Below are positions 9,305 through 64,000 of a stretch of DNA of 64,000 bases, one piece after another. Location: the NCBI GenBank assembly GCA_024137785.1, contig JAHRHZ010000088.1, forward strand, positions 7,262,375 through 7,326,374. Direction: 5' to 3'. The notes beneath the pieces are model-generated. The model did not search any database and was not told the origin of the DNA. It saw only the letters and a program-made list of their open reading frames with translations. Made by a program: the position numbers and the translations under genes. Source of the DNA: Ginglymostoma cirratum (lineage: Eukaryota). The stretch's first letter is position 1; each line of letters starts with the position of its first letter.

Positions 9305-9768
9305 AAGAAAAATAAAACACTGCAGATGCTGGAAATCTGAAATAAAATCAGAAAGTACTGGAGAAAATCAACAAGTCTGGCAGAAGCCGCAAGACGAGAA
9401 ACAGAGTTCACATTTTCAGTCCAATTTGAATCTTCTTCAGAATTGAAAGGTGTTGAGAAATGTGTTTTTTTTTAATGCTGTGGACAGAAGGGAAGAGAAG
9501 GAAGTGGAACAGATTGTGAGAGTACCCAGAGCAAAAGAGAAAAGACAAAGGCAGTGCCCAGAGCAAAAGATCAAAATGATCACTTTTGCTCTGGGCACTC
9601 TCCAAAGCTATTCCACTTGCTCCTGTGCCCACAGCATTAAAAAAACAGCATTTCCCAGGCTTGGTCAGTTGTGAAGAAGTCATGCTGAACTTAAAATGTT
9701 AACTCTGTTTCTCTCTTCACAGATGTTGCCAGGTCTACTGAGTTTTTTCAGCACTTCCTGTTTTTATT
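9305..9768. mobile_element. Penelope-like pseudo-LTR inverted (hairpin) element
   Basis: Left arm (gatgctggaaatctgaaataaaa...ttcttcagaa) is the reverse complement of the right arm (gaagaagtc...gttaactctgtttctctcttcacagatg...); degenerate hammerhead cores in both arms. Confidence 0.85.
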
Positions 9769-10427
9769 ATAATCCAATAGAGCCTGTTTTTAGAAACCAT
9801 TGTTTTCATTTCAACCAATGAAGCTCTGATTACATCAAAGCTATGTTATTGCATCCTCAAAGGCTGTATAAAGCTGTTTCATCCAATTTCACCTGAACTG
9901 TCTAATTCATGCAAGTAAAATCCACTGGAGTCCATCAGAAGGCACATGCACACCAATTATTAAAATGTGCTGCTTGAAGATGTGTACACCTGAGCTCAGC
10001 TAACAGGCCAACCTGCTCAGAACCACTTGGTATGTGGCATTTAACCTGTTTGAGCCTATGAGCATCATCTTGTGCTATGAGAGGTACAGCATTTGCTACC
10101 CAGAGTGAGCTTCACATGAAAGGTCAATGACTGATAGTACCAACTGCACTCACCGATCTTAAAACCTGTGCAAATGAAAATTGGCTTCAGCTAGCTATCT
10201 AGGCTCAGCACATTGTTTCTGTGTCAAATAATGCATATTTGTCTTGGATAAATTGCTTATGGCTATGGATGGCTGTGAACATTTGAATAATTGGCAAATA
10301 CAATTGTTTCAAATTTCAGCAGCCAAAGTGGGAGAAATATTATTCACAACATATACAAAAAGATCAGAAATCACTACAAAAATACAGGGAGACACAATAC
10401 AATGACAAGAACCTGTAAAGACAATTT

Positions 10428-10915
10428 TAGAATTAGAATTAGCTTTATTGTTACATGTACTCAGTGAAAAATTTACAAGTCGCCACTTACGGCAGCACCT
10501 TAGGAACAAAGGAACCTAGGTACAAATTCTTAAGTACAAATTCTTAGGGGTAAGAAAAATAGGTAAAAATAAATAACTTAAAAATCCAGCATTACAAATC
10601 ATTGGAACAAATTAGAAAAATGAAGAAATAAAAAGTTCAGAAGATCTAGCCTTCCAAGCCCGTCTATGGTGGCACCTAGACTTTAGTCTGCACCGGGCCT
10701 TGACTCACACCAGGCCGAAAGACCGCCAGTCCGGGCCGCCGAGAGACCACTGCACTGGCCTTCGAGAAACCACCCAATTTGGCCATGAGATCACCATGCT
10801 GGGCCACCAAGAGACTGCCCTGCCAGGCCAAGAGACTGCCATGCCGGGCCAGTGAACCACTACGCCAGGCCAGAAGACCACCACACTAGGCTGAGAGATC
10901 GTTATGCTGGCCCGT
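10428..10915 (-). mobile_element. Non-autonomous retroelement with (TTAGAA)n-type tail and internal GC-rich minisatellite
   Basis: ttagaattagaattagctttattgttacatgtactc terminus; related copy at 57070-57300; tail architecture resembles the Rex1 tail at 36478. Confidence 0.6.
10708..10912. repeat. 21-24 bp GC-rich minisatellite, about 9-10 units
   Basis: Repeated YGCCRGGCC(A)AGAGACYRCCA; explains the VVVxWPG pseudo-peptide in ORF 10705-11004. Confidence 0.85.
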
Positions 10916-11589
10916 GCTGATTCAACTGAGATGGACATTTCATGTAATCGCAATGGTCGGCTAAAGAGTTTTGTTTCCTGTTGACAATGAACACTTCCGT
11001 GCAATCCAGCGGATTTTGGAAGTTCCCTGAGTGAAATTCAATATTCTCAGCAATTGCTTGTGCAGAGGGATGGTCTTACTTTTAAAAGCTGCAGCCTCAA
11101 ATTGGCAGTTCTGTCCTCTTTAGCAGAGACATAATGAGAGACAAAATGTGTAACAAGAGTGACAAACATGCAGAGGAACAATAAAATGGGCACCAAATTG
11201 GTAGTGAAAGCTATTATAAACTTGAGACCAATAGTGATTGTAAAATAATCTAACCAAAATAAATATGTTTCCAAACTTTAAGGAAGAGGATGAGATGGTT
11301 TTGTAGCAATTCAAAAGCCCTAATGAAATTAGTGTGTAGGAACAGAAAAAGATGTGAATGGAAACATTGCAGTTAAAATACTTTCTGCATTCAATGTAGA
11401 TTATGATGTGCTAAACATATAATTCTTGTAATTTTGAACTGATACTAAAAGTAAATGTGAACTGTTCTGGGAAGCTCAGAAACAGATACAGGAAGATGGC
11501 AATAGAAATGAAAGGTGAATTATTGATTTTGGAAGGCAATAATGGAATAAATTATGTGAGTTACTGTAAAAAAGATGCTGATTTTAGTT

Positions 11590-12480
11590 CCTTGAGAAGA
11601 GGTTTGATATCAAAGTCAGATGGTCAAACAAACCTATCATTTGGCAACCTCATTGGCTCCCAGGAGTTGACATGTGACTTGGGAAAACGGAAGTCTTACC
11701 CAATACTTCTGAAAAGAATTCACCTACATCCACATACATCCAATGTTTTACAGCCTGGATGATTACAGAGATAATTCCTGGGCTAATAAATATTACAGAC
11801 TGGAACCATAAAACAAACAATACAAAGAGGGAATCCAAGAATAAAGGGGAAGAATTAAGAACCATAAGAAGTTCATTTTGTGCTGACTGTTTACACCAAA
11901 GTCAGAGAATTTGCACCTGATCATAGGAAAAAGTGACAAAAGAATGGTTTGTGTCATTAATACATCTGAGTCCAAAGCAATTAGTTTATAAATGGTGGAT
12001 GTGCCTACATTAGTGGCATTTTAAGTTAGGATGGGAAGCCCATCTATGGCTAAGGCATGGTTAGAACATCTGTTTTGGACATGCGAAGTAGGAGTTTTGG
12101 TTGTATAGTATAACATTGGAGAATGATTTAATTCTTAGCAGTAGCCAGTATGGGTACTATACGGGTCAGATTAAGGTTGAGAAAGAGTCAAAAAGTAATG
12201 ACCAGCGATGGTGTAGACTGGTAGCACTATGCATGAATAGGTCTTCACCAACCTGAACCAGATCAAAATTTCAGAATATCTGTAGTAAGAAGGCACATTG
12301 CAATAGATTCACGAATAGAGAAAGCATACAGAAAAAGCAACTGACTGAGTATACATCTGGACATGGGAGTGTGAACTAAGCCAGACTGAATTCAATCTGG
12401 ATTGACACAAGAATTCAAACAATTAGAATAATGCAGCATAATCTAAAGTTTATTTTATATAAGAACATATTAGTCAAGGG
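11590..12480 (+). mobile_element. Possible very decayed Gypsy pol (RNase H region) remnant
   Basis: ttacagcctggatgattacagagataattcctgggctaataaatattacagactgg resembles the LQ-Y-I-Y-PG-N-AD motif; heavily frameshifted. Confidence 0.35.
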
Positions 12481-17769: not shown

Positions 17770-18362
17770 ATCTGCATTTGTATACAGCTTTCCACATCCA
17801 GAGCGTTTCAGTCACTGAATTACCTTTTGAAGTGTGCGCTGTTGCATCTAGGAAATGTGGCAATTTACATACGGCAGGGTCCCACAAGCAACAATGCAAT
17901 ACTGACCAGCATGGTGGCTCAGTGGTTAGCACTGCTGCCTCACAGCGCCAGGGACCCGGGGTTGATTCCAGCCTTAGGTGACTGCCTGTGTGGAGTTTGC
18001 ACATTCTCCCTGTGTCTGCATGGGTTTCCTCAGGGTACTCCAGTTTCCTCCCACTGTCCAAAGATGTGCGGACTAGGTGGATTGGCCATGCTAAATTGCC
18101 CGTAGTGTTCAGGGATGTGTAGATTAGATGGGTTATAGGGGGATGGGTCTGAGTAGGATGCTCTGAGGGTCGGTGTGGACGTGTTGCGCTTGCTTTCCAC
18201 ACCGTAGGGATTCTATAATTTGTCATTTTTTTGAGTGATCTTGGCAGAACAATATATATTGGATTCAGGACACGGGAAAAATCTTCCTGGTTTACTTTTT
18301 AAAATGACTAGGACATTTTCATGTCCACTTTAGAGGGCAAACAGGATCTTATTTAAAAGTCT
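17770..18362 (-). mobile_element. Deu-type SINE interrupted by an HE1 SINE
   Basis: tgcatttgtatacagctttccac...gggtcccacaagcaacaatgcaatactgaccag | HE1 | ataatttgtcattttt...caggacacggg... Confidence 0.7.
17909..18216 (+). mobile_element. HE1-type V-SINE (tRNA head, V domain, CR1-type tail)
   Basis: A box ggtggctcagtggttagc, B-box-like gttgattcc, V domain gtgtggagtttgcacattctccctgtgtctgcatgggtttcctc, tail gtagggattctat. Confidence 0.92.
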
Positions 18363-18364
18363 AA

Positions 18365-18645
18365 TAGAGTCAGAGTAGAACAGCATGGAAACAGACTCTT
18401 CGGTCCAACTTGTCTATACCAACCAAGGTTCCCAAACTAAACTAGTTCCACTTGCCTCCATTTGGCCCATATCCTTCTAAGTCTTTCCTATTCATTTAAC
18501 TATCCAAATGTCTTTTAAATGTACTAACTGTACCTGCTTCTACCACTTCCTCTGGCAGTTCATTCCACTTACGAACCACCCTCTGCGTGAAAAAGTTGCT
18601 CCTCAGGTCACTTATATTCTTTCTCCTCTCACCTTAAAAGTATGA
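18365..18645 (-). mobile_element. CR1 3' end (same family as 1070-1540)
   Basis: agagtcagag tail, then cagcatggaaacagac...ctggcagttcattcca...aaaagttgc. Confidence 0.85.
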
Positions 18646-19569: not shown

Positions 19570-19936
19570 ATTAATGTAGTGGTAATGTCATTGGATAAGT
19601 AAGTAAATACTCAAAGCTAATGTTATGGTGACATGGGTTCAAATCCCACAATGGCAGAAATGGCTGTAATTTGAATTCAATCCATGAATAAGAAGCCAGT
19701 CTTAGTAATGGTGACCATGAAACTGCCATTAATTGTTTTTTAAAAATCTATCAGATTCACTAATGTCCTTTCAGGAAGGAAATTTACAGTCCCTACCCAG
19801 TCTGGCTTACATGTGACTCCAGACACACAGCAATCAGGTTGACTCTTAAGTGACTGAGCAAGCCTAATAGCTAGGAGTAGGCAACAAATGTAGTCCATGC
19901 CAGCAATTCCCACATCCCATGAAGGAATAAAAATAA
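19570..19936 (+). mobile_element. tRNA-headed SINE with Meta-like core and LINE tail
   Basis: gtagtggtaatgtc head, gggttcaaatccc B box, core ttcactaatgtcctttcaggaaggaaat...acatgtgactccagac, tail cccacatcccatgaaggaataaaa. Confidence 0.8.
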
Positions 19937-20620: not shown

Positions 20621-20846
20621 GGCTGGCAGGTTGAGTACCATTTGAAAGACTTCAGATCTGCAGCCATCAGTATGCACAATAACTAAACAGGAGAAACATC
20701 AGAGAAACATGTCCAGAGTCATTATTTAGTCAGCAAAGTTCAAGGTGGTAGGACTATTGGGAGCCTAACAATATTGATAAGTTCATATTCCTATTCAATT
20801 AAACAAATGGCATTGGTGTGAGAAACCAGCACTGTTTTATCTCTGA

Positions 20847-20965
20847 AATAAAACAAAGAACTGTGGATGCTGCAGATCAGAAACAAACAAAACCAGAAAT
20901 TGCTGGAGAATCTGTGGACAGAAAATAGAGTTAACATTTCAAGTCCAGTGACCCTTCTGCAGGAC
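20847..20965 (-). mobile_element. Solo PLE-derived pLTR unit, degenerate hammerhead
   Basis: aaacaaagaactgtggatgctg...gagttaacatttcaagtccagtgacccttctgcag. Confidence 0.8.
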
Positions 20966-21099
20966 TGATTGTGCAGTCACTTTAGCCCATGTACAAAATT
21001 AATGGAGAATGATGCCAATGTAAAGGAACATAAAATAACATATGCTTTAGAGTCCTTGGCTGTCTTCGAGCTGTAAGGTTCTAAACTGAGACCAATGTT

Positions 21100-21700: not shown

Positions 21701-21764
21701 TCATGGGGTAAGTAAATATAATCATGGTTAATGGAAGTTGTCACACAGACAAATCAACACGAGT

Positions 21765-21950
21765 AACAAAAACAGAAGTTCCTGGAAAAGCTCAGCAGGT
21801 CTCATCTGTGAAGAAAAATCAGAGTTAATGAGCTGGGTCTGGTGACTCTTCCAACCCTCTTACTGCTCAAAAATCTATCCATCTTTACCTTAAAAACGTT
21901 AAATGAGGTAACCTCAACTATTTCACTGGGCAGGGAATTCCACAGATTCA
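21765..21950 (-). mobile_element. Solo PLE pLTR fragment joined to a short CR1 fragment
   Basis: aaaacagaagttcctggaaaagctcagcagg...gggtctggtgactcttcc directly followed by CR1 LNLWNSLPSEIVEV antisense. Confidence 0.75.
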
Positions 21951-22334: not shown

Positions 22335-22850
22335 CATAAGAAATAGGAGCAGAGTAGGCCTGCTCCACCATTTAATAAGATCATGGCTGATCTCTTCGTG
22401 GAGTCAGCTCCACTTACTCGCCCACTCACCATAACCCTTAATTCCTTTACTGTTCAAAAATCTATCTATCATTGCCTTAAAAACATTCAATGAGGAAGCC
22501 TCAACTGCCTCACTGGGTAGGGAATTCCATAGATTCACAATCATTTGGGTGAAGAAGTTCCTCCTCAGCTCAGTGGTAAGTCTGCTCCCCCTTATTTTGA
22601 GGCTATGCCACCTAGTTCTTGATTCACCTGCTAGTGAAAACAACCTCCACACTTCTATCTTATCTATTCCCTTCATAATTTTATATCTTTCTATAAGATC
22701 CCTGCTCTCTTCTAAATTCCAACGAGCATAGTCCTGATCGACTTAATCTCTCTTCATTAACCAACAATCTCAACTCTGGAATCAACCTAGTGAACCTCCT
22801 CTGCACCCCCTCCAGTGCCAGTACATCCTTTTTCACGTAAGGACACCAGG
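22335..22850 (-). mobile_element. CR1 3' fragment
   Basis: ORF 22404-22676 ...RNFFTQMIVNLWNSLPSEAVEASSLNVFK...KGYGEWASKWS; tail cataagaaataggagcagagtaggcc. Confidence 0.92.
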
Positions 22851-28572: not shown

Positions 28573-29350
28573 GTTCTGATGAAGAGTCACCAGACTCGAA
28601 ATGTCAGCTCTGCTTTCTTCCCATGGATGTTGCCAGACCTGCTAAGTTTTGCCAGCAATCACAGTTTTTGTTTCAGATCTCCCACATCCGCAGTTCTTTA
28701 TTTTATTTTAGTGTTTAATTCACTGCCACATGTCTTCCAGGTATGCCTACCTTGAAGAAGTTCTGCTGCCCTCTCCAACAGGATTTCTGTTCTAATGTTT
28801 CTTCTTGTTCGCCATCGTTACTTCCGTCTTCTCTCCTAGTATTGGACAAAGTCTTTGCCAAAACTCACTTCCACAGCCACATTTCTCAGTGACTGTCTCC
28901 AACTCAGAATCACCCAATGTGGATTCCAACTGAAGTCTCATCCTTCCTGTTTTGAATCCACCCAGGATCGCAGGTATCTCCCTGATGTACAACACTCCTC
29001 AAACCACTGTTCTCACCACATCCTGAGATCCACACTCTGTGCTGAGTGTCGCCATGTGCACACTCGTGATCTCTCTCTCTCCACCAGTACCATCTCACAC
29101 TATCTCAGGATTATCTTGTCCTCCAGTTCCACTTTATTCTCTAGCTTGTTTGACCTTCTAACAAGAAACTTCTTCTTTCAGGCATTGAGGAATGCAAGCT
29201 GCAATGACTCAGGGATACCGAGGGCTGAAGAAGAACACTGGATTCAAAATATTAACTTTGCTTTCTCCCCACGTATGCTGCCAGACCTGTTGTTAAGTTT
29301 CACCAACAACTTCATTTTTGTTTCAGATATCCAGCATCTGCAGTTTCTAT
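28573..29350 (+). mobile_element. Internally deleted Penelope-like element: pLTR - ORF N-terminus - pLTR in direct orientation
   Basis: pLTR copies at 28573-28710 and 29222-29350; between them FLSDCLQLRITQCGFQLKSHPSCFES, matching the PLE N-terminal H..FL..C....iP.Gf motif. Confidence 0.8.
28576..28605 (+). ncRNA. Minimal type I hammerhead ribozyme motif
   Basis: CTGATGA-A-GAGTC-ACCA-GACTC-GAAA-T-GTC: intact core, perfect 5-bp stem II, GUC triplet. Confidence 0.7.
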
Positions 29351-30540: not shown

Positions 30541-30733
30541 GCACTGCCAAACTGATGGGTCAGACAGCATCAGACGAGCAAGAAAGTCAACCTTTCAGGT
30601 CAAGACCCTTCATCAGGACTAGGGTTCTGACCTGAAACATCGACTTTCCTGCTCCTCTGATGCTGCCTGACCTGCGTGTTCCTCCAGCTCACACTTTATT
30701 GACTCTGACTCCAGCATTGGCAGTTCTTGCTAT
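30541..30733. mobile_element. PLE-derived hairpin element (family B)
   Basis: Inverted arms around gacccttcatcagg; minus-strand core CTGATGA-A-GGGTC-TT-GACCT-GAAA; flanked by an 8-bp direct repeat cagcactg (30539, 30737). Confidence 0.8.
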
Positions 30734-30749
30734 CTGCAGCACTGGTGGG

Positions 30750-34194: not shown

Positions 34195-34790
34195 AAACTG
34201 CTCAAAACTGTGAACATTTTGAGTTCAGTATGACTTTTCTTCAGAACTGAAAGTCATTGGATGTTTTTCTTAATGTTTCTGAAAGAGGCAGAGGCCCAGT
34301 GCAAAAGACAAAGTTGTTGTTAATGGCAGAAAAAAAAATGTAAAATGTGTTTAGATTAAAGGTGTGAAAGGGAAAGAATGGTCTTCTATACTAGTGTAAA
34401 GTAAACAAGACAAGGCTGTAGACAGAAATGGGGAGAGAATGCAAGAAAAATGGAGAACAGACATAATGCAGTGAGTTTCTTAAGTTATTGAATTCAATTG
34501 TTATTGAATTCAATTTTCAGACATCAAGACTGTGAAGTACCTAAACAGAAAACGAGGTATGCATTGTGTTTGCATTGTGCTTTACTGGAACATTGCAGCA
34601 GGCCTAAGACAGAAATGTTAGCATGAGAACAAGATGGTTTGTTGAGATGACAAGCAGCTGGGAGGGTAGGGTGAATTCTGTGGATACAGTCAAGGTGTTC
34701 TGCAATGTGGTGAGCCAGTCTGCATTTGGTCTTGCAATGTAACAGAAACTGCATTTGAGCAGCGATTGTAAAAAACATTGTGATAAATAT
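34195..34790 (-). mobile_element. Penelope-like element 3' end (GIY-YIG C-terminus plus pLTR)
   Basis: ORF 34524-34793 KTKCRLAHHIAEHL...LPAACHLN...ISVLGLLQC...LVFCLGTSQ; degenerate hammerhead near 34212-34245. Confidence 0.85.
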
Positions 34791-34929
34791 CAAGATTAAC
34801 TCAACTGCTTTTGGAATTATATTATCAGGAAAAATAGATTCATAAAGGGGAATTCAATTCTTTCAGAAATAATGTTAGTAATACTAAAAATAAAATGATG
34901 AACAATTAATATGCATCAAATCACAGAGT

Positions 34930-35569: not shown

Positions 35570-36475
35570 TTAGACCTAGATTGACAGAAAGCAGGTACCA
35601 GGATTCTGTCCTTAACAAGAATGACTACTTAATACAACTAAATTGATTTTAGCAGAAGATAAACAATTATGAACCATCAACATATGACCCCACTAGTTCA
35701 CACTCTGACCTCCTTATTATCTCCCTGACATGTACACATACAGAAAGGACAGGAAAAACAGCATGGATGTTCTGGAACAGAAAGAGAAATTGCTGGAGAA
35801 AGGCAGCAGGTGTGGTAGCATCTGTAAGAAGAAAGCAGATTTAATATTTTGAGTCTTCATTAGATAAGTTAGAGGACTCAAAACATTAGCCCTGGTTTCT
35901 TCTGACAGATGTTGCTGGACCTGCTGAGTTTCTCCAGCAATTTCTGTTTTTGTTTCAGATCTTGAGCATGAGCAGTTCTTTGTTCTATTTTTATATGTGT
36001 TACAGACAGAGGGAAGAAGAGAGAAAGCAGTTAAATAGCCCCTGTTCACAGGTTTCACTGAAATTGTCCTTTTGGCTTGTCAGGATATGCTATCCCTTGA
36101 CTTTCCCTCTCCAGGTACATTCACTTACTTGCAAAAGGTACAGGGTGACTGGTTTACTCTTAGGAAACTCTAGGTTGCTGGTTGAGAGTCACAACTTACA
36201 GCAACTTCTGAGAGGAAAATAAGTTGGCTTTCCTCAAGCTTAAGGTGGTTTTTAACTAGAGAATAAAGATACAGCTCCTGCATTTACGGAGACCCAATGA
36301 TTCCTCTTTGAACATTCACACGTTCAAGCTTTTCAGCAACCTGGAAAAAAATCACGTCATAGTTGGCAGACTGAAAATCTTCGTCATCAATAACTGGTCA
36401 CGTGTCCACAGACCAATCAGCCACTTGTTGCCAGCCAAATCTCCATTCATGTCCAGCCCCCATGGCTTCAGCTCA
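35570..36475 (-). mobile_element. Probable LTR remnant hosting a PLE hairpin
   Basis: Promoter-like block tcacgtca / ggtcacgtg / ccaatcag at 36352-36420 and LTR-like body; termini unclear. Confidence 0.35.
35755..35992. mobile_element. PLE-derived hairpin element (decayed)
   Basis: gaaattgctggagaaa... versus ...tttctccagcaatttc inverted arms. Confidence 0.8.
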
Positions 36476-39824: not shown

Positions 39825-40143
39825 GGTATGTCACTTGATGAGCAATTCAGAACCTCACACTAATGTTCTGGGAACATGGGTTCAAATTCTATTGGATGGA
39901 TGGGGAAATTCAGATGCAATTTTCAAAGTCGGGGAAAATAAAGCTAGGCTATTGGTGACCAGACATTTCTTTTACAAAAAACCCATCTGGTTCACTAAGG
40001 TCATTTGGAAAAGGAAGTCTACCAATCTTACCTGTACTGGACTACACGTGACTCCAGACCCATAGCAATGTGGTTAGAGATGGGCAATAAATGCTGGCCT
40101 GGCCAGAGGCACCCAAATCCTATGAACCAATGATTAGAAAAAG
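39825..40143 (+). mobile_element. Meta-like tRNA SINE
   Basis: gggttcaaatt B box; acccatctggttcactaagg...gtgactccagacccatagcaatgtgg; tail aataaatgctggcctggcc. Confidence 0.85.
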
Positions 40144-41089: not shown

Positions 41090-42734
41090 CTGTAAATAAT
41101 CAGCAGGCCAGAAAATATTAATAGAGGGAGGATATTAGGACTAATATTTCTGGTCAATGACTTTTCACCAAAATGCGCAAGTATCAGGAGATACTTCAAT
41201 GAGGAGTAACAATGTAAGTGTTACTTCACTGTGCTTGTTCAAAACATAACAAGGGCCATTGACTTATGGTGAAGAACTGAACTAAATTAGAATGAGAGGT
41301 AATTTTATTCAGTGGAACTCCATGATTTTAATTGTTGTTGAATTTGGGGAAAGCAATTTTGCACAAATACAGTTAAGACTATTGGTTTACAGCAACTGAG
41401 CAAGTTCATTTTATCTACAGTTATTACTCATCCTGAGATTTCTACTGTTGGAATTTTATGCAATTATCAATGAAAATCTTGCCCACCAATATAACCAACA
41501 AAGCTGTACAAGAAATAAAATCTTCAACAAAATGATCTCTTCTGTCATGTGAAATGCAAGAAGACATATTCAGTTTATCAATAGTTCATTCATTGTCCCT
41601 TTTGATGACTCGGACAGGAAGTGGTTAACTCAAATACTGTGTCATTTGACAGTCCCCAGTGACCTAGCGAAATGAGCGTTGAAACTTACAATCAAAAAGA
41701 ATTGCTCAAAAGATTTTGCTCCCTGGAATCCTTTTTGTTTTTGTTTTGCCAATGGTGGTGTTTGTGTTTGTTGCAACAAAAAAAAAGTGATGTTCATTTG
41801 CAATAGTTTTTTTCATCTGACAGCACTGAAGTTCTTCTTTGAAAGCCAGTTTTGATAGAACTGGTTGCCTCCCTTGTCTGATTTATAAAGGAAATTCAGC
41901 CCTTGAGAGCCTGATTAATCTTAGGCAGAAATCACATCACAGAAATCAATGCATGCATAAAGCAACCGTGCTGTCCGGTGTGTCAATACAAATCAATCAA
42001 TCATCAAGGTACACAACTTCTTTTCCCCATTCTGCCTTGCACTTTGGCTGAGATTTTGGGCATTCTCAGCCTTGGTTTCACTTCCATTTTTGAAACACCC
42101 ACACACATACTCACTCTTCAGCAATTTCGGCTTCGAAAATGCGATATAACAACACCAGACATTACGTCCCTCCAAACTATTAAATCCCCCACATATGTGC
42201 TCTCATTTTGTTGACACACAGAAGGCAGTCAAGCTGAAGCACGTAAAATACAAAACCTTCTGCCAATGGCAAAGTGCAAATATTTACACATACATCCATA
42301 CACAGACAGGCATCTTTCAGCATAATGCAAAGGCCAAGCATTAGACGATTACAACCTACCGCCTTCCCTCAAATTGGAAGAAGCAACTAAATATAATGAG
42401 GCACAGCTATTCTATCGCTAGGGAACTTCAATGTCTATCATCAAATGCAATTTGGTTATACCATCACTAACTTTGCTGGCCAAATTCTCAAAGACGTCGT
42501 GGCCAAACTGGAATTATTGGTATCAAGAAAGCCAACATGATGAAATAAATTTTTTGGCTCCATTCTCTTTTATCTATCTTTAAGTCAAATGTAAACACTT
42601 ACAATATTGGTCGGAGTGATAGCTGCTTAGACTTTGTGAAACCATGTTATGTCTTCACAATGAGCACATTCTCTGTTGTATCACATGGAACTACAGTCAC
42701 ACAGATTTGAAAAGCTTAGAACAATTCTGATGAA

Positions 42735-43035
42735 GCCCATACTGCATCATGGATGCCCAGTGTTGAACTGATGAGTAAAACAAAGAACTGCAGATGCTGG
42801 AGACCTGAAACAAAAAATACAGAATTGCTGGTGAAACTCAACAGGATTGGCAGCATGTGTGTGAAAAAAAGCTTTAAACTCAAAAACTTGACTCTTTTGT
42901 TTGCACAGATGCTGCCAGATCTGCTGAGTTTTGCCAGCAATTTCAGTTGTGTTTTTGTTTCAGATCTCTAGCATCTGCAGTTCGTTGTTTCACTTGTCAA
43001 TTCAAAACTGGGCATCCATGAGGCAGAATGGACTA
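42735..43035. mobile_element. PLE-derived hairpin with inverted symmetry extending into the flanks
   Basis: Arms 42778-42870 and 42893-42992; outer ~45 bp also inverted (catggatgcccagt / actgggcatccatg). Confidence 0.85.
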
Positions 43036-43291
43036 TGAACAGCAGCAGAATGCCCTTAGCAGTAACCTTGTGGCCCAGCATGTACTTCATTCACAAAACC
43101 ATTGAGCCAGGTAACCAAAGTGTTTAGAAGAGCTGATGCCAATGTGCCAGTTCATTGAAGATATATGACAGAACTAAATGTATAAAGAAAAGTATGAGCA
43201 CACTGACACAGAAATGGCTGTGGGTTCCAGTAATATTTTGACTGTAGTGCTGAAAATCTGTGCTCTAGAAAGAAACGTGATCCAAACTAAG

Positions 43292-43510
43292 TTAACAAGA
43301 TGTGGAGCTAGATGAACACAGCAGGCCAGGCAACATCAGAGAAGCCGGAAAGCTGATGTTTCAGGTCTGGACCCGTCATACATTCTGAAGAAGGGTCCAG
43401 AACTGAAACATCAGCTTTCCTGCTCCTCTGATGCTGCTTGGCCTGCTGTGTTCATCCAGCTCCACACCTTGTTATCTCAGACTCCAGCATCGGTAGTTCC
43501 TACTATCTCT
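43292..43510. mobile_element. PLE-derived hairpin element (family B) inside a LINE remnant
   Basis: Inverted arms; + core CTGAAGA-A-GGGTC-CA-GAACT-GAAAC-ATC at 43385-43412; 12-bp direct repeat atccaaactaag at 43280 and 43521. Confidence 0.88.
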
Positions 43511-43549
43511 GAGTGAGACAATCCAAACTAAGATGTTTCATGGCTTGAA

Positions 43550-43745: not shown

Positions 43746-44467
43746 AAATTGTGATTATGGAACAAGAGTATCACATAGGCCGCCTTCAAAAATAATTTAC
43801 CACACAGGTGATTCAAGTTCAAAAATGGAATTGGAGGAATGTGTTCTTAGCCAGAGCTTAGACTACATTCACAGTGCTTCCAAATTAACTAAGTGAATTT
43901 TTATCTTGAGTTACTTTGGTTCAGCCACAGAACTATTCAATGAGTTTCTCAGAGCTTTCTCTTCTGCTGCCCTTTTAAGGATACCACAATTTTATTTAAA
44001 ATCATGTTTTATTCAGTTGTTAATTTCCTGTACCTTTGAACTTCTGATACAGTCATAATTCATAAGGTAGTGACATTAATATTTTAACTTTTAAAATATG
44101 TTGGTAAAGTGAACTCAGATTTTGCTTAAATTCTGGTCGTAGCTAACAAATAGATTTATAATATGCTCACAATGCCTGAAAAGTGCTTTCAGAGTACACT
44201 CAGCTCCAGTTTAGAACTTAAAACAGAATCAACTGTTGAGGTGGGGTGACTGTTCAATTAGAAGTTGAGTTACACATTTAGCTGCTGATTGAGATTTTAC
44301 TGAATTGAACATTTTAAACTACAATAGCTGACGTTGAGAGCTTTCTAAATATATTTTTCTTGTATGGCATTATCATGCAGACAGATATGTGGTTGATTGT
44401 TTGAAGCGGAAGTGAATCAAATGGCTGTTGCTCAAAATACTGTGATCAGTCTGTCACATTGGGTCAA

Positions 44468-44704
44468 GAACAAAGTTGCTGCAAAAGCTCAGCAGATCTG
44501 GCAGCAGTTGTGAAGGGAAAAACAGAGTTAACATTTTGGGTCCGGTGACCCTCCGTCAGAAGGGTCTGAAGGTTCTGAGGAAGGGTCACCGACCCGAAAC
44601 ATTCACTCTGTTTTTTCCTTCACAGATGCTGCCTGACCTGCTGAGGTTTTCCAGCAACTTTGTTTTTGTCCCTGATTTACAGCATCCGCAGTTCTTTCAG
44701 TTTT
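44468..44704. mobile_element. PLE-derived hairpin element (family A) with 16-bp TSD
   Basis: Inverted arms; + core CTGAGGA-A-GGGTC-ACC-GACCC-GAAAC at 44575-44600; tgtcacRttgggtcaa at 44452-44467 and 44705-44720. Confidence 0.92.
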
Positions 44705-45723
44705 TGTCACGTTGGGTCAATTGCTTAGCAGGAGCATTTTGACTTTAGTATAAAACATAATGTCTTGTCTTCTACACAAAACAAAATGTAGTAACATTGC
44801 AAAATAAAGAAAAATATCAGTTATCTCAATTCACATAATGTTGTAGTAATGTGGTAAATAGCACATAAGGTAACTTTGACTCTTTTTGTAGAGCAGGCAA
44901 CATCATATCAACATTACACTGTTGAGGATTTCAGGGTAGTTGAGCTATATCAAACTTACAAACATATTTGTGAATCCATCCACCCACGTTCCAAAACAAA
45001 TGGCGGCATTCAAAACGGGCATAGCCATAGTTTTTTTATGTTGTCATACTACAACTCAGTATGACCCATACACTCATTCTTGATACTTGATGGATGGATG
45101 ACTGCTCTACACCAATAGACCAAAAAAAGGCTTGAAGTAAATCAGCAGCAATTCTTTCATCAGACTAGTTGTTATCTTCCATCGGGAAATGTTGCTAAGA
45201 CTTTCGAGTCAAAATTGAGTAAAACAGTGAGTCTAGGAAAATTGTTTTGGAAATTTTAATAGAAAGAAGATACATACAGTAAAAAAAATTCTAATTTGCT
45301 ATTTTCATTGTTCACGATTTCACATGGCTGGAAGTACAAACCAATTTTATGTCCAATGTGTAGAGAAAATAGTAACTGGGCACTTTTCATTGTCTAAAAA
45401 TATATGAACATCTGGGATTGTGCAGAAAACAGAAATCTTAGTGTCAGCTCCTGCATATTGGTTTCCAACTGGGTACATGCCTTTCCTCCATGAAGGTGAA
45501 GCAGGGGAGGCTGAATGATGGTAGCAAGGCAATCATTATTTTAGTACAGTTTCAGAAACTCCATAAATGTCCATTGTCTTCTCTACAAAAAGTCTTTTTC
45601 CCTGTGCAAATGGCACCCAACTCCTTATACAATGTATGCACTAGACTTGCTTTTATGATTGCTAACTGTGTAAGGTAAGAATAATAAAGTTGACAGCTAT
45701 TGACAGAAATAGGTTACACTTAC

Positions 45724-46302: not shown

Positions 46303-46645
46303 ATTCATTGATTCCCTACAGTGCAGAAGCAGGCCATTCGGCCCATTGAGTTCATGCAGACCTTCCCAAGACCATCTCACCCAGACCCATCCCATTTTTG
46401 TAACCCTGCAATTCCCATGGCTAATCCACCTAGCCCACACATCCGTGGACACTATGGATAATTTAGCATGACTAATTCACCTAACCTGCATAACTTTGAT
46501 CCGTGGGAGAGAAATAGAGCACCTGAAGGGGATCCATGCAGACGCAGGGAGAATGTACAAACTGCACACAGTCAGTTGCCCGAAATCAAACCGGTCCCTG
46601 GAGCTGTGAGGCAGCAGTGCTGTGCACTGAGCCACCATGCTGTCT
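46303..46645 (-). mobile_element. HE1-type V-SINE
   Basis: ccctggagctgtgaggcagcagtgc...cactgagccaccatg head and antisense V domain. Confidence 0.9.
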
Positions 46646-50519: not shown

Positions 50520-51277
50520 TTTGCATCAGAGTCAGCTGCATTGCAAGTCAAATCATTTTAGTGTACTTACAACATTGTCATCTGCTTGATAAATACCAAC
50601 TGCCTTACCAATTAGCTAATTGCCCATGTATGTCCAATTAGTGGAAACAAAGGACAAATCTAACATGGCCTTTTGCTGTCCTATCGGCCTCCTAATAATA
50701 GGTATGGTGATGGAATGAATTATCAATGGCAACACCTACTCGTCTATAACTTGTTCAACCATTTCTCAGTTTGGTTTCTACTAGAGTTATGTGACTCCGG
50801 ACATTTACAGTCCATATTTGGAATTTGATTCATATTTACCACTTACCTGAATGGGTGCAGAGCATTCAAGAGGATCTATCCATTCAATTCATTGCTTGAT
50901 GCTCCAGTGACTTGTCTTAATATTCATTCATCCTTCTCAAGTGCTGTGGTAATGCATTCTATATGTTCTACAGCATGCCTTTCAGGAACTCACCAATGAA
51001 GTTTTGATTACTTCATGCCCCTGCAACATCTATCACCAAGGCGAACAGCAGAAATATTATGGAACCATTGACTCTCCAAGTTTGCTTCCAGGTCACACAT
51101 CACCCACACCCTGACAAAACTCCCCCTTCTTGTACATTTCTGGGTTCAAATTGTGGAATTCCCGGCATGGAACCAATATGGGAGCTCTGTCACTACCACA
51201 ACCTGTCAAGTGAGAAGGGTTACCACTAATATCTTTATCAGAGCAACTGGGATGGGAGCAATTAATGAAGCATTTGT
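50520..51277 (+). mobile_element. Decayed LINE 3' region (family of 37560-39745)
   Basis: cacttacctgaatgggtgcag, ttccaggtcacacatc, ctgggttcaaattgtggaattccc (WNS), gcaactgggatggg tail. Confidence 0.7.
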
Positions 51278-51580
51278 GGGTGACACAGTAGCTCAGTGAT
51301 TAGCACTGCAGCCTCACAGCACCAGGGACTCAGGTTTGACTCCAGCTTTGGAGTCTTTGAGGAAGTTGCACATTCTCCCTGTGTCTGTGTGAGGTTCCTC
51401 TGGGTGCTCCAGTTTCCTCCCACAATCCAGAGATGTGCAGGTTAGGTGGATTAGCCATGGGAAATCCAGGGTCACAGGGACAGGGTAGGAGGTGAGTCTG
51501 GGTGGAATGCTCTTCTAAGGTTTGGCATAGACTCGATGGGCTGAATGGCCTGGTCCCACACTGTTGAGATTCTATGATTC
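51278..51580 (+). mobile_element. HE1-type V-SINE inserted in the LINE tail
   Basis: gtagctcagtgattagcactgcagcctcacagc head, V domain, gattctatgattc tail. Confidence 0.9.
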
Positions 51581-52219
51581 ATTGTCAACATTCCAAAATA
51601 TAAAAAGTGATCATTGTTAAAATTTTAGTGCTGTTATCCAGTCATATTTCATTTTCTTTAGTATACAACTGTTGCTTTAATGTCGATGCACTTCCAGAAG
51701 CCTGTTTACCAGGCCTTATTTCCCCTGAGCATGGTTTTCTGTGGGAAATATGTTTGGCTGGTGAGCTATAGAGTGAAGTGACCCTTTATACTAATGAGAT
51801 ATAAAGTAGATGCAGTACAGACTATAAGTACCATAAGCAATCTATATCTGTTTGACAGAGAAATAACAATGTGAAAGACCCCAATTTCAGACTACAAATT
51901 ATCAATGAAATTTGTTAATAATTTAGTTTAAACAGAAACTGCGAGCACAAAAAGTTGACTAATAAGTGTAGTATTTAAGTAATTGTCTCTGTTTAACAAA
52001 ATACACGTCAATAAACTCAGACTACTTTCCATGGTGTCACACCTTTGCTTTCATGATACAAAGTTTTACGTGATACTACAAACTCCTATTGGAATCCTTT
52101 TTAACCTCTACCTGCATCAGAAACCAACTGGCTAGCAGCAGTACCATCATCCTTAAGTTTAGTTATCTCCCAAAGGGTTAAAAATTCAAAAAGAGTTTGC
52201 AACAAATTGTGATGTGTGC

Positions 52220-53459: not shown

Positions 53460-54035
53460 GTGAATATGGTTGGAGTTCTGAGGTGGGTGCAGGTAGGGGT
53501 AGTGGGGATTGGTCAGTGGGAGGGGTGGGGCAGATAGGTAGGAAAGGAGATGGACAGGTAGTGTCAGGTCAAGGAGGCGGGGATGAGAGGGAGGGTTGGA
53601 CGTGGGATGAGGCCAGAGGGCTGGGGAGATTTTGAAACTGGTGAATTCTATGTTTATGCCATCAGGCTGTAGACTCCCGAGGCTGAATATGAGGTGTTGT
53701 TCCTGTGACATCATTGTGGCGCTGGAAGAGGCCCAGGATGACACCTGATACTACCTGTCTATCTCCTTCCCTACCTATCCACCCCACACTTCCCACTGAC
53801 AAAGCTCTACTACCCCTACCTACATCCACTTATCAGCATCCAACCTACTTTCCACCAGCCCCACCCTTCCTTCCTCTATTTATTTCCCAGCTCCCTTCCC
53901 CCTCCCCAGGCCTAATGAAGGGTCTAGGTCCAAAACGTTGACTCTACTGCTTCTCTGATGCTGCCTGACCTGCTGTGTTCCTCCAGCTCCATGCTGTATC
54001 GACTCTAACTCCAGCATCTGCAGTTCTTGCCATCT
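53460..54035. mobile_element. Penelope-like element 3' end with inverted partner
   Basis: Minus strand EQHLIFSLGSLQPDGINIEF (GIY-YIG C-terminus) plus pyrimidine-rich UTR; plus strand repeats the UTR and pLTR with a degenerate core ctaatgaagggtctaggtccaaaac. Confidence 0.88.
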
Positions 54036-54111
54036 CCGATGGTTGAAGTTCTATATCTCTCCATCCTATGTGGTGGCCTACACATGGATCTGATACAAAA
54101 AAGGTGGACCA

Positions 54112-54495
54112 GTGGAGTAGTGGTAATATCACTGGTCTAGCAATCCAGAACCTCAGGCCAATTTCTTGGGTATGACAAATGGTAAAAATTGAATTCAATG
54201 AAAGAAAATCTGGATTAAAAATTTGGCCTAATGGCAATCATATGACTATTGTAAAAGCCCATCAAGTTCTCTAATGTCCTTTAGAGAAGGAAATCTGCTA
54301 TCCATAACTGGTCTGGTAGTTTCCTTCAGTATGAAATTAGTTAAAAGTATGACAATAAACCCTGATACAACACAACCTGGTCTGACCTACACATGACCCA
54401 AATCTACAGCAATATAGTTGACTCTTAACTGCCCTTTGGGCATTTAGGGATGGACAATAAATGTTGGCCTAGGCACATCCTGTGAATGAATAAAG
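54112..54495 (+). mobile_element. Meta-like tRNA SINE with an internal ~60-bp insertion
   Basis: gtagtggtaatatcactgg head, ctaatgtcctttagagaaggaaatctgc core, aataaatgttggcctagg tail. Confidence 0.85.
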
Positions 54496-57300: not shown

Positions 57301-57539
57301 AGCGCAAGTTCATTAACCTGTAAATAAAATGACGAATGCTATCATACTGCATATTGTTTAATCAACAAGATTCTCCTAGCATTCTCCTAGCTAGACCAGA
57401 AAGGCAGATATCTTAATCCACATTATGTCACCTTGGGCTTGGAGGAACACAACTTGATGGTAATGGGGCACTCCTATCACGACATTGTCCTTATTGATGC
57501 CAATACCCTTCAAAATCGGTGCTCGTACCATCAAGCAAA

Positions 57540-59467
57540 ATTGGTGCTGGTTCCATGGCTTTTCGCTATGTATATAAATGATTTGGATGTGAACATAGGA
57601 GGTATGGTTAGCAAGTTTGCAGGTGACACTAAAATTGGTGATGTAGTTGACAGTGAAGAAGGTTACCTCAGAGTACAACGGGCCAATGAGCTGAAGAGTG
57701 GCAGATGGAGTTTAATTTAGATAAATGTGAGGTGCTGTATTTTGGAAAGGCAAATCAGGGCAGGACTTATACCTTAATAGTAAGGTCCTGGGGACTGTTG
57801 CTGAACAAAGAGACCTTGGAGTGTAAGACCATAAGACCATAAGACATAGGAGTGGAAGTAAGGCCATTCGGCCCATCAAGTCCACTCTGCCACTTAATCA
57901 TGGCTGATGGGCATTTCAACTCCACTTACCCGCACTCTCCCCGTAGCCCTTGATTCCTTGCGAGATCAAGAATTTATCAATCTCTGCCTTGATGACATTT
58001 AACGTCCCGGTCTTCACTGCGCTCTGTGGCAATGAATTCCACAGGCCCACCACTCTCTGGCTGAAGAAATGTCTCCACATTTCCGTTCTAAATTGACCCC
58101 CTCTAATTCTAAGGCTGTGCCCATGGGCCCTAGTCTCCCCGCCTAATGGAAACAACTTCCCAGTGTCCACCCTTTCTAAGCCATGCATTATCTTGTAAGT
58201 TTCTATTAGATCTCCCCTCAACCTTCTAAACTCTAATGAATACAATCCCAGGATCCTCAGCTGTTCATCGTATTTTAGGCCTACCATTCCAGGGATCATC
58301 CATGTGAATCTCCGCTGGACACGCTCCAGTGCCAGTACGTCCTTCCTGAGGTGTGGGGCCCAAAATTAGACACAGTATTCTAAATGGGGCCTAACTAGAG
58401 CTTTATAAAGTCTCAGAAGCACATTGCTGATTTTATATTCCAACCATCTTGAGATAAATGACAACATTACATTTGCTTTCTTAACCACGGACTCAACCTG
58501 CAAGTTAACCGTTAGAGAATCCTGGACTAGCACTCCTAGATCCCTTTGTACTTTGGCTTTATGAATTTTCAGAAAATAGTCTATGCCTGTATTCTTTTTT
58601 CCAAAGTGCAAGACCTCGCATTTGCTCATGTTGAATTTCATCAGCCATTTCCTGGACCATTCTCCTAAACTGTCTAAATCATTCTGTAGCCTCCCCACCT
58701 CCTCCGTACTACCTGCCTGTCTACCTAATGTCGTATCATCGGCAAACTTCGCCAGAATGCCCCCAGTCCCAGGCTCATTGTTTTTTGAAAGTGGATTCGC
58801 AGGTACATAGGATAGTGAAGAAGGTGTTTGGTAGGCTTGCCTTTTTTGGTCAGTGCATGAGTGTAGGAGTTGGGAGGTCATGTTGTGGCTGTACAGAACA
58901 CTGGTCAGACCACAATTGGAATACTGCATGCTATTCTAGTTCCTGCTATATGAAGGAAGTTGTGAAACTTGAAAGGTTCAGAAAAGATTTACAAGGATGT
59001 TGCTGGGATTGGAGGATTTGAGCTCTAGGGAGAGGCTGAATAGGCTGGGGCTATTTCCCTGGAGTGTCAGAGGCTGAGGGGTGACTTTATAAAGGTTTAT
59101 AAAATCATGAGGGGCATGAATAGGGTAAATAGACAAGGCCTTTTCCCCAGGGTGGGGAGTCCAAAACTAGAGGGCATAGGTTTAAGGTGAGAGGGGAAAG
59201 ATTTAAAAGGGTCCTAAGGGGCAACTTTTTCGTGCAGAGGGTGGTGCATGTATGGAATGAACTGCCAGAGGAACTGGTGGAGGCTGGTACAATTACAATA
59301 TTTAAAAGGCATCTAGATGGGTATGTGAATCGGAAGAGTTTAGAGGGATATGGGCCAAATGCTGGCAAGTGGGACTAGATTTATTTAGGATATCCAGTCA
59401 GCATGGATGAGTTGGACCAAAGGGTATGTTTCCATGCTGTATGTCTCTATGACCCTCTATGACTCTA
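57540..59467 (+). mobile_element. CR1 (RT core to 3' tail) split by an antisense CR1
   Basis: YINDLD...SKFAGDTKIG at 57570-57640; resumes at 58770 and runs to WNELPEELVEAG and a (TATGACTC)n-type tail. Confidence 0.93.
57824..58769 (-). mobile_element. Younger CR1, 5'-truncated at the RT FADDT motif
   Basis: ORFs 58366-58929 (KFADDTTLG...LYKALVRPHLEYCV) and 57916-58299; (TAAGACCA)n tail at 57824. Confidence 0.95.
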
Positions 59468-60159: not shown

Positions 60160-61290
60160 ATTAAATTTTTTATAATGGACTTTAGCATTTTCCATGTTCC
60201 TGATGTCAGGCTAACCGGTCCATATTTATCTGTTTTTGTGCTACCTCCTTTTTGAAATTACATTAGCTACCCTCCACTCCTTAGGATTCAGAGCTCCAGA
60301 GTCTATAGAATCCTGAATGTTGACCACCCAAGGCGATATAATGCATCTACTATTTCTACATCCACTTTCTAAAGTACAGTTCACTTCCTTAAATACTCTG
60401 GGGTGTAGATTATCACACTCAGTGGATTTGTTGGCCTTTAATCCTTTAATTTTCCCCAGTACCATTTCTACTAATTGGATGTCTTTAAATTTGTGTGTCT
60501 CTCTCTCTGTAGTCCATGTGTTCCCCAATATTTTTAAGATGTTATTTGCATCATCCTTTGTGAATAAAGAACCAAAATACACTTTTTTATTAGTCAGCCA
60601 TTTTCTTTTTCCCTCATTATAAACTTCCCCCATTTCTGGCTGTAAGGGACCTACATTTGCCTTCACTAATCCTTTTCTCTTCACATTCCTCTTGCAGCTT
60701 TTATAATTATTTGTCTGTTCCCAACAAGCTTACGCCAGTATTCTATTTTTCCCCTCTTAATCAATCCCTTTGTCCTCCTGAAATAAATCCACAAAGGCCA
60801 GTATCCCATCACCAAGGCAACCTTTATTTACATGTGCATTGTACTTGACACTAGTTCAGCTAGCACAGAGATAGCCCCTGGAGTAAACAGAACACTGACA
60901 CTCCTGCTTATATCTATGAGTCAGGGTTCCCTGATTGGACCAGGAAATCCACCTGGCTGACTTTGTTCTAATCACATCCTTTGGTGAAATCCAAAGTGCT
61001 CCCAATCCTCAGGTCTGCTGCTCTTTTTGGCCAATTTATATACACCATCCTTGAATCTAACACTAATCCCAATTTGCCTTATCATCCAAGGCTGGGCCAT
61101 CATTCCTATTGTACTTTTGAGCCAGACAGGAATAACCAGTTGCTGCAGTTCCTCTATGCACTCTTTAAATGTTTGCCATTGCCTATCCCTGTCATTCTTG
61201 CAAGTACTGCTCCCTATTTATCATAACCAATTCTCACCTCACATCATCATAGGTTCCTTTTTGTCGATTCAGCATCACATTAAATATTAA
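60160..61290 (-). mobile_element. Decayed CR1 ORF2 internal fragment
   Basis: ORF 60241-60684 KANVGPLQ...DNLHPRVFKE...WRVANV. Confidence 0.85.
60779..60976 (-). mobile_element. Solo LTR (Gypsy-type) inserted in CR1
   Basis: Minus strand starts TGTG and ends TTTCA; CCAAT, TATA-like and AATAAA in order; short tcc duplication; CR1 resumes on both sides. Confidence 0.75.
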
Positions 61291-61744
61291 ACATGAATCA
61301 CAAATAACTCTCCAAAATAGGGGCCATCAAATACTAGAAATACTTTTTATATTTCACAACAGGAAAGTTCTGTCCTGAACAGAAGGGTGTGGATTGAATT
61401 CAACTCAGTCAAAAGGTGGAAGTGGTTAAGCATCAAAAGCTAAAAGGGTTCCTTTGAAAAGGAATTTCCCAATTTATTAAAAGTTTTTGCAGGGTCAAAA
61501 ACCGAATATAGCATTACACTGAAGAAGGATACTAAACTCTTATGCCTTTATCCACTTGTGAAAATATCATTCACTTAATGAAACAGGTTAAGAAACAACT
61601 TGAAGAGGTTGCAAGCAAAGGAGTAATTTCTCAAGCCACAAAACCAACAGAGTGGTATTTTGGCCTGTTCCAGTATGAAGTCTAATGGAACTACTCTAAA
61701 AACCTCAACAAGACACTAGCTAGAGAACTTCACACTAAGTTCAA

Positions 61745-61844
61745 AAACAAAGTTGCTGGTAAAGCTCAGCAGGTCTGGCACCATCCGTGAAGGAAAAAAC
61801 AGTGTTAGTGTTTCGGGTCCGGTGACCCTTCCTCAGAACTAAGA
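61745..61844 (-). mobile_element. Solo PLE/hammerhead unit with 11-bp TSD
   Basis: actaagttcaa at 61734-61744 and 61845-61855; interrupts the Gypsy RT. Confidence 0.9.
61810..61836 (-). ncRNA. Minimal hammerhead ribozyme core
   Basis: CTGAGGA-A-GGGTC-ACCG-GACCC-GAAAC with perfect stem II; cleavage triplet mutated (ACT). Confidence 0.6.
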
Positions 61845-62529
61845 ACTAAGTTCAAGGTTGGTGTGAATCTAGCTAAACTATCAAAGAGCAGAGGTTTCAT
61901 GAAAATTGACAGAAATAGAGGCTTTTCACATGTGTCATTAGATGAGAAATCAAGTTGCTTACCACCTTGCTAACTCTATTTGGATGATCTTACTCTAACA
62001 GCCTACCTTGTGGAATTACATCAGAGATTTTCTACAGAATGATGACAAGTATCATCTCAGAGTCATATATCATAGGGATGATATAGTGCACCACAGGAAA
62101 CAGTTGAAGAGCATGATTAAAGATTAGATCATTTTGAAAAGAAAGGTTTTACACTGAATGAAAAGTGTGAATTCTCTAAAGAATCTATTCACTTCTTGAG
62201 GAACATTGTCAAGAGTGAAGGCTTGATGGTGGATTCCCACCAGATTAAAGGCATTACAGAATTCCAACTTCAAAGTCAGTCCAAGGTCTTCCAAAGCTCT
62301 TGGCTGTGCTGAATCAGTTAACAAAATTTCTGCCAAATCTAGCAACTATTACAGAATCCTTGAAAAAAATCCTCAAGGTGACACATATATGGTGTTGGAA
62401 TCGTCATCAAGCCAAAACTTTAAAAAATGAAATGTTGACATTTATAGATGTTTTATGTGCGTTATAATCTTTCATTTCCAATGATAATAGCAGCTGATGG
62501 TTTTGTTATAGGCGATAACTACCGCTAAA

Positions 62530-62880
62530 AGTGCACTAATCCCAATTTCCTGCACTTGTCCCATATCCTTGAATGTTATATTATCTGAAGTATTCATCCA
62601 AATACTTTTTAAAGTTATAAGGTTTCCAGATTCCACTCTATTCCCAGGCAGTGCATTCCAGATTCCCACCACTACTGAGTGAAAAAGTCTGTTCCCAAAT
62701 ACCCTCAGAATCTCCTGCCCCTTGCCCTAAAACCATGCCCTCTCATGATTGATCCCTCAACCAAGGGGAACAGCTGCTCTCTATTCACCCTGTCCATACC
62801 CCTCTTAACCTTATCCACCTCAATTATATCCCCCCCTCAGCCTTCTCTGCTCTAAAGAAAACAATGCAAGCCTACATGAT
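62530..62880 (-). mobile_element. CR1 3' fragment
   Basis: VGIWNALPG motif; ccaaggggaacagctg, ccccctcagccttctc. Confidence 0.85.
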
Positions 62881-62919
62881 CTATTTTTCATCAAGAACAT
62901 TATCTGATGGAGAAAGACA

Positions 62920-64000
62920 GAATCACAGAATAAACGCAGAACTGTTATGGCAAAGAAGGAGCCTATTCAGGCCATTGTATCTGCACCAGCTCTCCACCAA
63001 GCATTATGATCAAGTGTCATTCTCCTGCCTTTTCCCCACACCCCTGCACATTATTTCTATTCAGAAAACCATCCAATATCCTCTAGAATGCCTCAATTGC
63101 TTCAAACATACTTCCAAGTCATGCAAACCATTCATTGTACAACCAAAGTTTTTTCTCACATCAAATTTTCTATTTTTATAAATCACTTTAATGCTGTATC
63201 TTCTCTTCCTTGATTCTTTTACAAGCAGTAGCATTTTCTCCTTATCCACTCTATCCAGACCTCTCATGGTTTTTAAAATTTCCATCAGATCTCCTATCAG
63301 ACTTCACTCCATGGAGAACAATCCAAATCAATCCAATCTGTTCTCAAATCTGAAGTATCTCATCCTTGGAATCATTTTTGTAACTCCCTCCTGCACTTTC
63401 TCCAACATGTTTACACCTTTCCAACTCAAAGAAGTACCTTTACTCAAACCTTTACAATACTTCAGCTGAGGTCTCACAAGTACTTTTTATAAATTCAGCA
63501 TAACCTTCTTGCCCATTCTACTTTATGCTCCTATCAATAAAACCCCTCATATTATATGTTTTATTAACCACTATCTTCACCTGTCTTGCCACCTTCAGTG
63601 ATCTATGCACATATTCACCCAGTCCCCTTTTCTCCTGCACACCTTAACTGTTGTTCCCTGTATTTTATACCATCTGTCTATATTCTTGTTCCAAAAAGCA
63701 TCAACTCATATTTTTCAAAATAAAAAAATGAAAGAACTGCAAATGCTGTAAACCAGGAAACAAAACAGAAGTTGCTGGAAAAGCTCAGTAGGTCTGGCAG
63801 CATCTGTGAAGGAAAAAACAGAGTTAAAGTTTCGGGTCCGGTGACTCTTCCTCAGAACTCATATTTTTCTGCCTGGAACTTCACCTGCCATCTATTACCA
63901 CTGCACCAACTTGTCTATGTCCTGTTGGAGTTTTACTCTGTCCTGCTTATGGTTTAGAATGCTTCAAAGTTTCATATCATCCATAAACTTAGAAAATGTC
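62920..64000 (-). mobile_element. CR1 3' fragment running off the window
   Basis: agaatcacagaat tail; ILKTMRGLDRVDKEKM; RT core antisense near 63950-64000. Confidence 0.85.
63717..63855 (-). mobile_element. Solo PLE/hammerhead unit with 14-bp TSD inside CR1
   Basis: aactcatatttttc at 63703-63716 and 63856-63869; sense GAGTT-CTGAGGA-A-GAGTC-ACCG-GACCC-GAAAC-TTT-AACTC. Confidence 0.92.

Follow-up and report, generated by a model that had tools for sequence, protein, structure and literature searches.

Endonuclease-bearing (EN+) Penelope-like elements (PLEs) of the Neptune type are the closest described relatives of the short repeats analysed here. According to PMC8557442 and PMC3846280, they encode a reverse transcriptase (RT) followed by a C-terminal GIY-YIG endonuclease (EN) with a cysteine linker (CX2-5CxxC between RT and EN is the Neptune criterion in PMC8557442), and carry pseudo-long terminal repeats (pLTRs) that overlap the start of the open reading frame (ORF). 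The same papers describe an inverted 5′ copy, an optional tail of 30-40 nt on one arm, target-site duplications (TSDs) and a hammerhead ribozyme within the pLTR; in Adineta a TATA box and an initiator (Inr) were noted there. We analysed a 64,000-nt stretch of the shark Ginglymostoma cirratum (GenBank assembly GCA_024137785.1, contig JAHRHZ010000088.1, positions 7,262,375 to 7,326,374 of the forward strand; hereafter the window), in which an earlier note had recognised short hammerhead-bearing units at 14 coordinates and read them as non-autonomous, retrozyme-like derivatives of PLEs. These published EN+ features are present in this genome, which differs in that the commonest product is just 100-140 nt long and ends sharply, on its 5′ side, at the predicted transcription start. 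We consider it probable that the units are pLTR-module insertions of Neptune-type PLEs, most likely cDNA of the 5′ leader of an uncut transcript, copied from an internal RT start back to the predicted transcription start.

Other systems share parts of this picture. The minimal type I hammerheads of metazoan PLEs (PMC4209133) have the same CUGANGA box, extra base before stem II, G10.1-C11.1 pair, GAAAC-GUH without helix III and 4-bp stem I. They too are mostly single and dispersed, with some on opposite strands, and were ascribed to truncated PLEs. Cleavage and circular templates are suggested there; insertions of the type found in the window, by contrast, keep the cut site. The Anolis Poseidon element, from a different clade, resembles ours in using two internal RT starts that bound the tail and in cutting and extending both target strands in vitro, where uncut RNA was the main substrate (PMC11167929). 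Non-LTR retrozymes (10.64898/2026.07.22.740005), one chondrichthyan included, are likewise pLTR-derived and non-coding with a type I hammerhead, and dispersed 'monomers' are described for them. However, they are defined as tandem repeats with at least two complete hammerheads, whereas the units here are solo or head-to-head and mostly broken. Drosophila Penelope has a TATA-less internal promoter (PMC2377424). The element type, the hammerhead, the inverted-plus-tail layout and the two RT starts are thus already published; a search of titles and abstract starts, with most subscription papers outside its reach, returned no paper on short PLE insertions bounded by the transcription start.

Copy number and parent elements

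Seeded searches found 19 arms in the window, which make up 13 insertions; a further, partial copy lies at 34195. Related units of 100-140 nt are present at every one of the 14 coordinates, and fall into two main families (A and B) with older subfamilies of A. The genome was sampled as 142 stretches at regular steps, two of which adjoin the window and 59 of which are nearly all N, leaving 793,645 readable bases. As this 794-kb sample contains 189 arms, the number in the window is typical of the genome: one arm per 3.4 kb in the window against one per 4.2 kb in the sample is an average density for this genome, and not the dense family that had been described. By extrapolation there would be roughly a million arms per genome, if the N-masked parts are similar.

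The sequence of the units is that of the pLTR module of ORF-bearing PLEs, which bears out their proposed derivation from GIY-YIG elements. With the peptide at 34524-34853 as query, 150 relatives were scored among 69,899 candidates. In family A the unit lies about 290 nt past the GIY-YIG end in 18/18 loci (chosen for long frames), and in family B it follows the ORF in 21/25 loci (near-full-length elements from a search with the homologue P0028). A terminal repeat with a hammerhead stands at both ORF ends in one copy of each family (L052 in A, L254 in B). Moreover, in L242 and L254 the B unit leads straight into an open frame of 1,049 codons, a single ORF in which RVT_1 and, at the C-terminus, GIY-YIG both exceed the Pfam cut-offs; an Ala/Thr/Pro-rich repeat lies close to the N-terminus of these frames (L242:742-3888, L254:739-3885). 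For family A, homologues with RT and GIY-YIG domains were recovered from broken copies. A 76% match to a bamboo shark protein fits the shark origin that the earlier note had assumed. Both families have a C-x4-C-xx-C linker between RT and EN, which fits the Neptune motif, and on this predicted linker we assign them to the Neptune-type PLEs. Identical leaders at separate loci suggest recent activity of family B, whose open frames make the system bench-testable.

The T-rich tail, taken previously for the terminus of the unit, is templated and continues into the ORF in 5′ copies. Two GIY-YIG remnants that had been reported near 34524 and 53600 were confirmed and placed at 34570-34768 and 53565-53705 via genomic relatives, Pfam having given no match to either fragment; the 34195 and 53460 units are the ends of these PLE remnants themselves. 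Outside the window, a divergent GIY-YIG fragment (L112:1810-2157, 34% to P0001) likely represents a third PLE lineage. The family A leader holds several branch-point/pyrimidine/AG runs at about +40 to +58 and ahead of the ORF start, as well as a short upstream frame, and no clear splice donor was seen in it.

The 5′ edge and the hammerhead

Unit positions are numbered so that hammerhead stem I opens with base +1. A readable 5′ flank was available for 165/189 sampled arms; the other 24 were set aside because N or the end of the locus lay at their 5′ edge. Of the 94 arms reaching +5, 63 stop within -4..+5, a rate per base 33 times that upstream (26 times in A, 36 times in B), and 31 run past the edge. 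The 33-fold enrichment excludes uniform truncation, and with 5′ ends so sharply placed the units are not the random truncations that the earlier note had named as its refuting case. The ribozyme cut site is retained, and 5 of the 165 arms start there against 7.4 expected from the 59 inner edges. In attached copies of both families a TATA-like run lies at -29 to -31 and an Inr match at +1. This is the sole TATA-like run standing 27-33 nt ahead of an Inr match in each 500-nt reference, and it points at the edge. An AT-rich run occupies the equivalent place in two older lineages, and in B (14 copies) the TATA-like run is the best-conserved upstream window.

Could the edge instead be a place where RT is arrested, or where the RNA is cut in processing, at the 5′ limit of a hammerhead that is folded or bound by protein within a longer RNA (the 3′ pLTR copy)? 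In both families stem I begins exactly at the edge, and copies passing it are common, as this explanation would have it. However, RT would come to the fold from its 3′ side, where edges show no enrichment; the TATA-like run and Inr keep promoter spacing in both families, though their untranslated regions (UTRs) are unrelated; and ORF-bearing 5′ fragments start at the same edge (28573, L239). We therefore regard arrest or processing as unlikely.

Several observations nevertheless weigh against our preferred reading of the units as leader cDNA. The transcription start at +1 is a prediction from the spacing of motifs and the edges of insertions. In A (33 copies) the best-conserved windows upstream do not include the TATA-like run; matches to TATA are imperfect (6-7 of 8), and Inr is a loose motif. 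With 24/189 arms dropped and 59/142 stretches nearly all N, an undercount of long copies is likely; the worst-case edge fraction is 63/118. An extra G at the edge (9/15) is mostly explicable otherwise, a cap origin being indistinguishable from slippage. Among the insertions of the window, the hairpin at 42734 and the left-hand arm of the 53480 insertion break the two-site rule for 3′ ends described below.

At family level the motif is a minimal type I hammerhead, as had been predicted, with CUGANGA, an extra A, a 5-bp stem II, GAAAC-GUH and a 4-bp stem I (weaker in B). The claim that most units carry hammerhead cores was not borne out: both core boxes are found in 7 of the 19 window arms, a relaxed descriptor matches one (28573) and a strict descriptor none, the figures for the 189 sampled arms being 54, 25 and 19. 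An Rfam scan of the window returned 13 weak matches, none to a hammerhead family, with only hairpin-driven miRNA hits. The extra A following A9 was present in 5/5 window arms that parsed fully. Stem II pairs as GGGTC/GACCC in one subfamily and GAGTC/GACTC in another; the change is compensatory, as claimed, but is one event dividing two subfamilies and not repeated covariation (A-T form in 10/12 parsed among 29 relatives of 28573, G-C form in 16/22 parsed among 80 sampled A arms). Outside CpG, the core shows better conservation than the rest of the unit: 96.9% against 89.3% in A (27 arms) and 97.5% against 90.4% in B (49 arms). These figures are partly inflated by the choice of arms for alignment to the 5′ end, and such conservation is expected from selection on the parent elements. 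RNA folding of five units gave ordinary stability (z -0.97 to +0.65).

Two 3′ ends, hairpins and the mode of copying

The 3′ ends of the units are bimodal, at about +100 and +136-144 in A and about +96 and +132 in B, giving two sites separated by about 36 nt. Repeats resembling TSDs, 8-19 nt long with a mode of 14-15 over 61 events, flank 24/32 hairpins and 15/35 edge-starting solos (7/14 tailed, 8/21 tailless), against 1-2% for mismatched flanks. Long inverted pairs (10/10 with a TSD) had been picked by their TSDs, and this circular count was left unused. Complete hairpins pair a tailed with a tailless arm in 30/32 cases (p about 1e-7); within these 30 the tailless arm extends further 5′ in 13, the tailed arm in 12 and neither in 5. 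Hairpin junctions vary between copies. At L098:2073-2095, L015, L017 and L014 the junction inserts repeat parts of the first 10-15 bases of the leader, as would be expected had RT slipped at the end of the RNA or engaged it again.

These lengths bear on how the inverted arm forms. In the self-priming proposal for inverted pLTRs, with an antisense template (PMC3846280), the hairpin would arise by fold-back on one template; the junction region is indeed rich in short self-complementary stems, and the 42734 hairpin runs into shared non-PLE sequence on both arms. However, fold-back of either cDNA cannot yield the 13/30 pairs in which the tailless arm is the longer, the reverse being seen in 12/30, and tailless solos with TSDs make +100 an independent start. 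Since an early-stopped tailed cDNA would lack the needed bases, and a tailless cDNA would have no tail to template, both arms must have been copied from RNA. Fold-back is accordingly distinctly unlikely here. The arm-length pattern favours two primings over it and agrees with the two starts and two-strand extension of PMC11167929.

We also asked whether the units are self-propagating, non-autonomous retrozyme- or SINE-like (short interspersed element-like) elements with a lineage of their own. Their copy number is very high, they have their own TSDs, a fixed length and the better-conserved core, and vertebrate retrozymes are reported as pLTR-derived (10.64898/2026.07.22.740005). However, the module is the pLTR itself in the A and B loci counted above, and free and attached copies intermingle on trees: A requires 7 label changes against 7.5-7.6 after shuffling (33 and 8 rows), and B 12 against 13.0-13.1 (29 and 16 rows). 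In B, two free copies have exactly the sequence of two attached ones. These trees were built on 94-98 nt with few supported branches, and at that low power no lineage independent of the autonomous element appeared; a nearest-neighbour test in B leaned towards label clustering (p 0.06), which speaks for the other side. Moreover, the junctions differ from copy to copy, the stubs lack the upstream TATA-like run, and the core conservation is expected from the parents and inflated by arm choice. Tandem units with at least two consecutive complete hammerheads were absent from the window and the 794-kb sample, as was any array of intact tandem units: Tandem Repeats Finder gave no array of Penelope-type units in the window, and of 7 same-strand neighbour pairs within 1.2 kb among the 189 arms none was abutting and intact. 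Head-to-head arms, for their part, cannot make a dimer ribozyme because the second hammerhead is antisense. The own-lineage interpretation put forward in the earlier note is thus very unlikely.

It is scarcely credible that the template was hammerhead-cleaved or circularised RNA (largely refuted for this genome by the paucity of cut-site edges), or spliced RNA with an acceptor at the edge (A has a pyrimidine run and CAG there, but B has no AG, and the stubs do not share an exon attached upstream), or that the stubs are random truncations, given the edge enrichment.

We propose that the units were inserted by PLE enzymes, as the earlier note rightly held, in the following way. Pol II would initiate at +1 from a TATA/Inr promoter in a pLTR, belonging either to a full element or to a 3′ fragment that carries the promoter. 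One target strand, or both with the nicks some 12-15 nt from each other, would be cut by the PLE protein, which would prime at either internal site. RT would then copy 100-140 nt and run off at the 5′ end of the RNA, as in the making of a retroviral strong-stop product. A single cDNA would give a solo unit, tailed or tailless; two cDNAs, one per site, joined at trimmed 3′ ends would give a hairpin; and priming on the 3′ pLTR copy would give the longer ORF-bearing forms. Since the stubs are without a TATA box and decaying they are likely dead ends, non-coding copies moved by the parent's enzyme for one generation only.

A broader proposition seems to us evenly poised between right and wrong: that directly integrated strong-stop-like cDNA is the main PLE product here, that the hammerhead is the first 32-34 nt of the capped transcript, that only uncut RNA is copied, and that the inverted repeat joins two cDNAs primed on opposite target strands. 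If true, the ribozyme would be a self-decapping switch or a protein-binding fold, not a template maker, and in any genome the ends of insertions would by themselves be enough to map the promoters and RT starts of PLEs. The units are a large natural record of PLE copying, with evidence at population scale on three points: the start of the template RNA, the part played by the ribozyme, which apparently does not cut the template first, and the origin of the inverted arm, for which two primings are favoured over self-priming. Such pLTR leader stubs may also be what has been counted in vertebrates as dispersed 'retrozyme monomers'.

Insertions and other repeats of the window

Table 1. Units and PLE remnants of the window, with positions within it (signed numbers are unit positions).
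Feature	Positions	Strand or arms	Remarks
Inverted insertion, old A-type lineage	9299..9768	tailed arm 9446->9300 (-), tailless arm to 9768 (+)	12-nt TSD, 1 mismatch; both arms reach upstream pLTR; hammerhead cores broken
Solo tailed A unit	20846..20973	-	20-nt internal deletion; core A6 altered; no TSD at score 8
Solo tailless A unit	21762..21852	-	begins +9; core lost
Old-subfamily leader from +2, then PLE ORF start	28573..29225	+	best-kept hammerhead in window
Second unit, closing internally shortened element	29225..29345	+	core G12 and G16.2 altered
Family B head-to-head hairpin	30565..30735	short arm (-), tailed arm (+)	weak TSD at 30541 unit
3′ remnant of old PLE	34195..34853	-	GIY-YIG C-terminus 34768->34570, UTR, decayed hammerhead ~34250->34200; shortened partial copy
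Old A hairpin	35771..35981	both arms from +21/+22	no CUGANGA box
Old A hairpin, two tailed arms	42734..43034	both strands	no core
Family B hairpin	43290..43510	tailless (-, +10..+97), tailed (+, +3..+132)	12-nt TSD
Family A hairpin	44465..44705	tailless (-, +3..+99), tailed (+, +2..+136)	16-nt flanking repeat
Inverted family B insertion	53480..54038	GIY-YIG C-terminus and UTR (-); UTR and tailed unit 53912-54036 (+)	TSD 53466-53479 / 54039-54052
Solo tailless A unit, +1..+99	61742..61840	-	11-nt TSD
Solo tailed A unit, +1..+140	63718..63858	-	14-nt TSD overlapping first four bases; core intact but for G16.2; one mismatch in stem II

TSDs were found at the 9305, 43292, 44468, 53460, 61745 and 63717 units and weakly at 30541 (Table 1). 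The 'direct-repeat' architecture proposed for 28573/29222 dissolves, as the two units enclose about 660 nt of PLE ORF start; in 28573..29225 the leader is followed by about 520 nt of ORF start, and the stretch is colinear with the near-full-length copy L052 (670 nt, 72%). Within 28573-29345 the leader and ORF start abut a second leader at +5, which suggests a template jump or a deletion. In the hairpin at 42734-43034, about 45 nt past the tail are common to both arms and unlike ORF-side sequence; this shared extra sequence may be an inverted duplication of the flank or a 3′ transduction.

Lastly, the window contains repeats of other kinds. A SINE-like family with a tRNA-like head occurs at 17907-18220, 37692-37988, 46299-46642 and 51273-51583, and resembles shark HE1. 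Another dispersed repeat family lies at 19706-19930, 31249-31464, 39973-40075 and 54249-54475. Reverse-transcriptase remnants like those of long interspersed elements (LINEs) were seen at 1071-1538, 18364-18644, 22404-22830, 36650-37268, 57391-59465 and 60241-60729, one of which includes an RVT_1 match under the cut-off (58366-58935).

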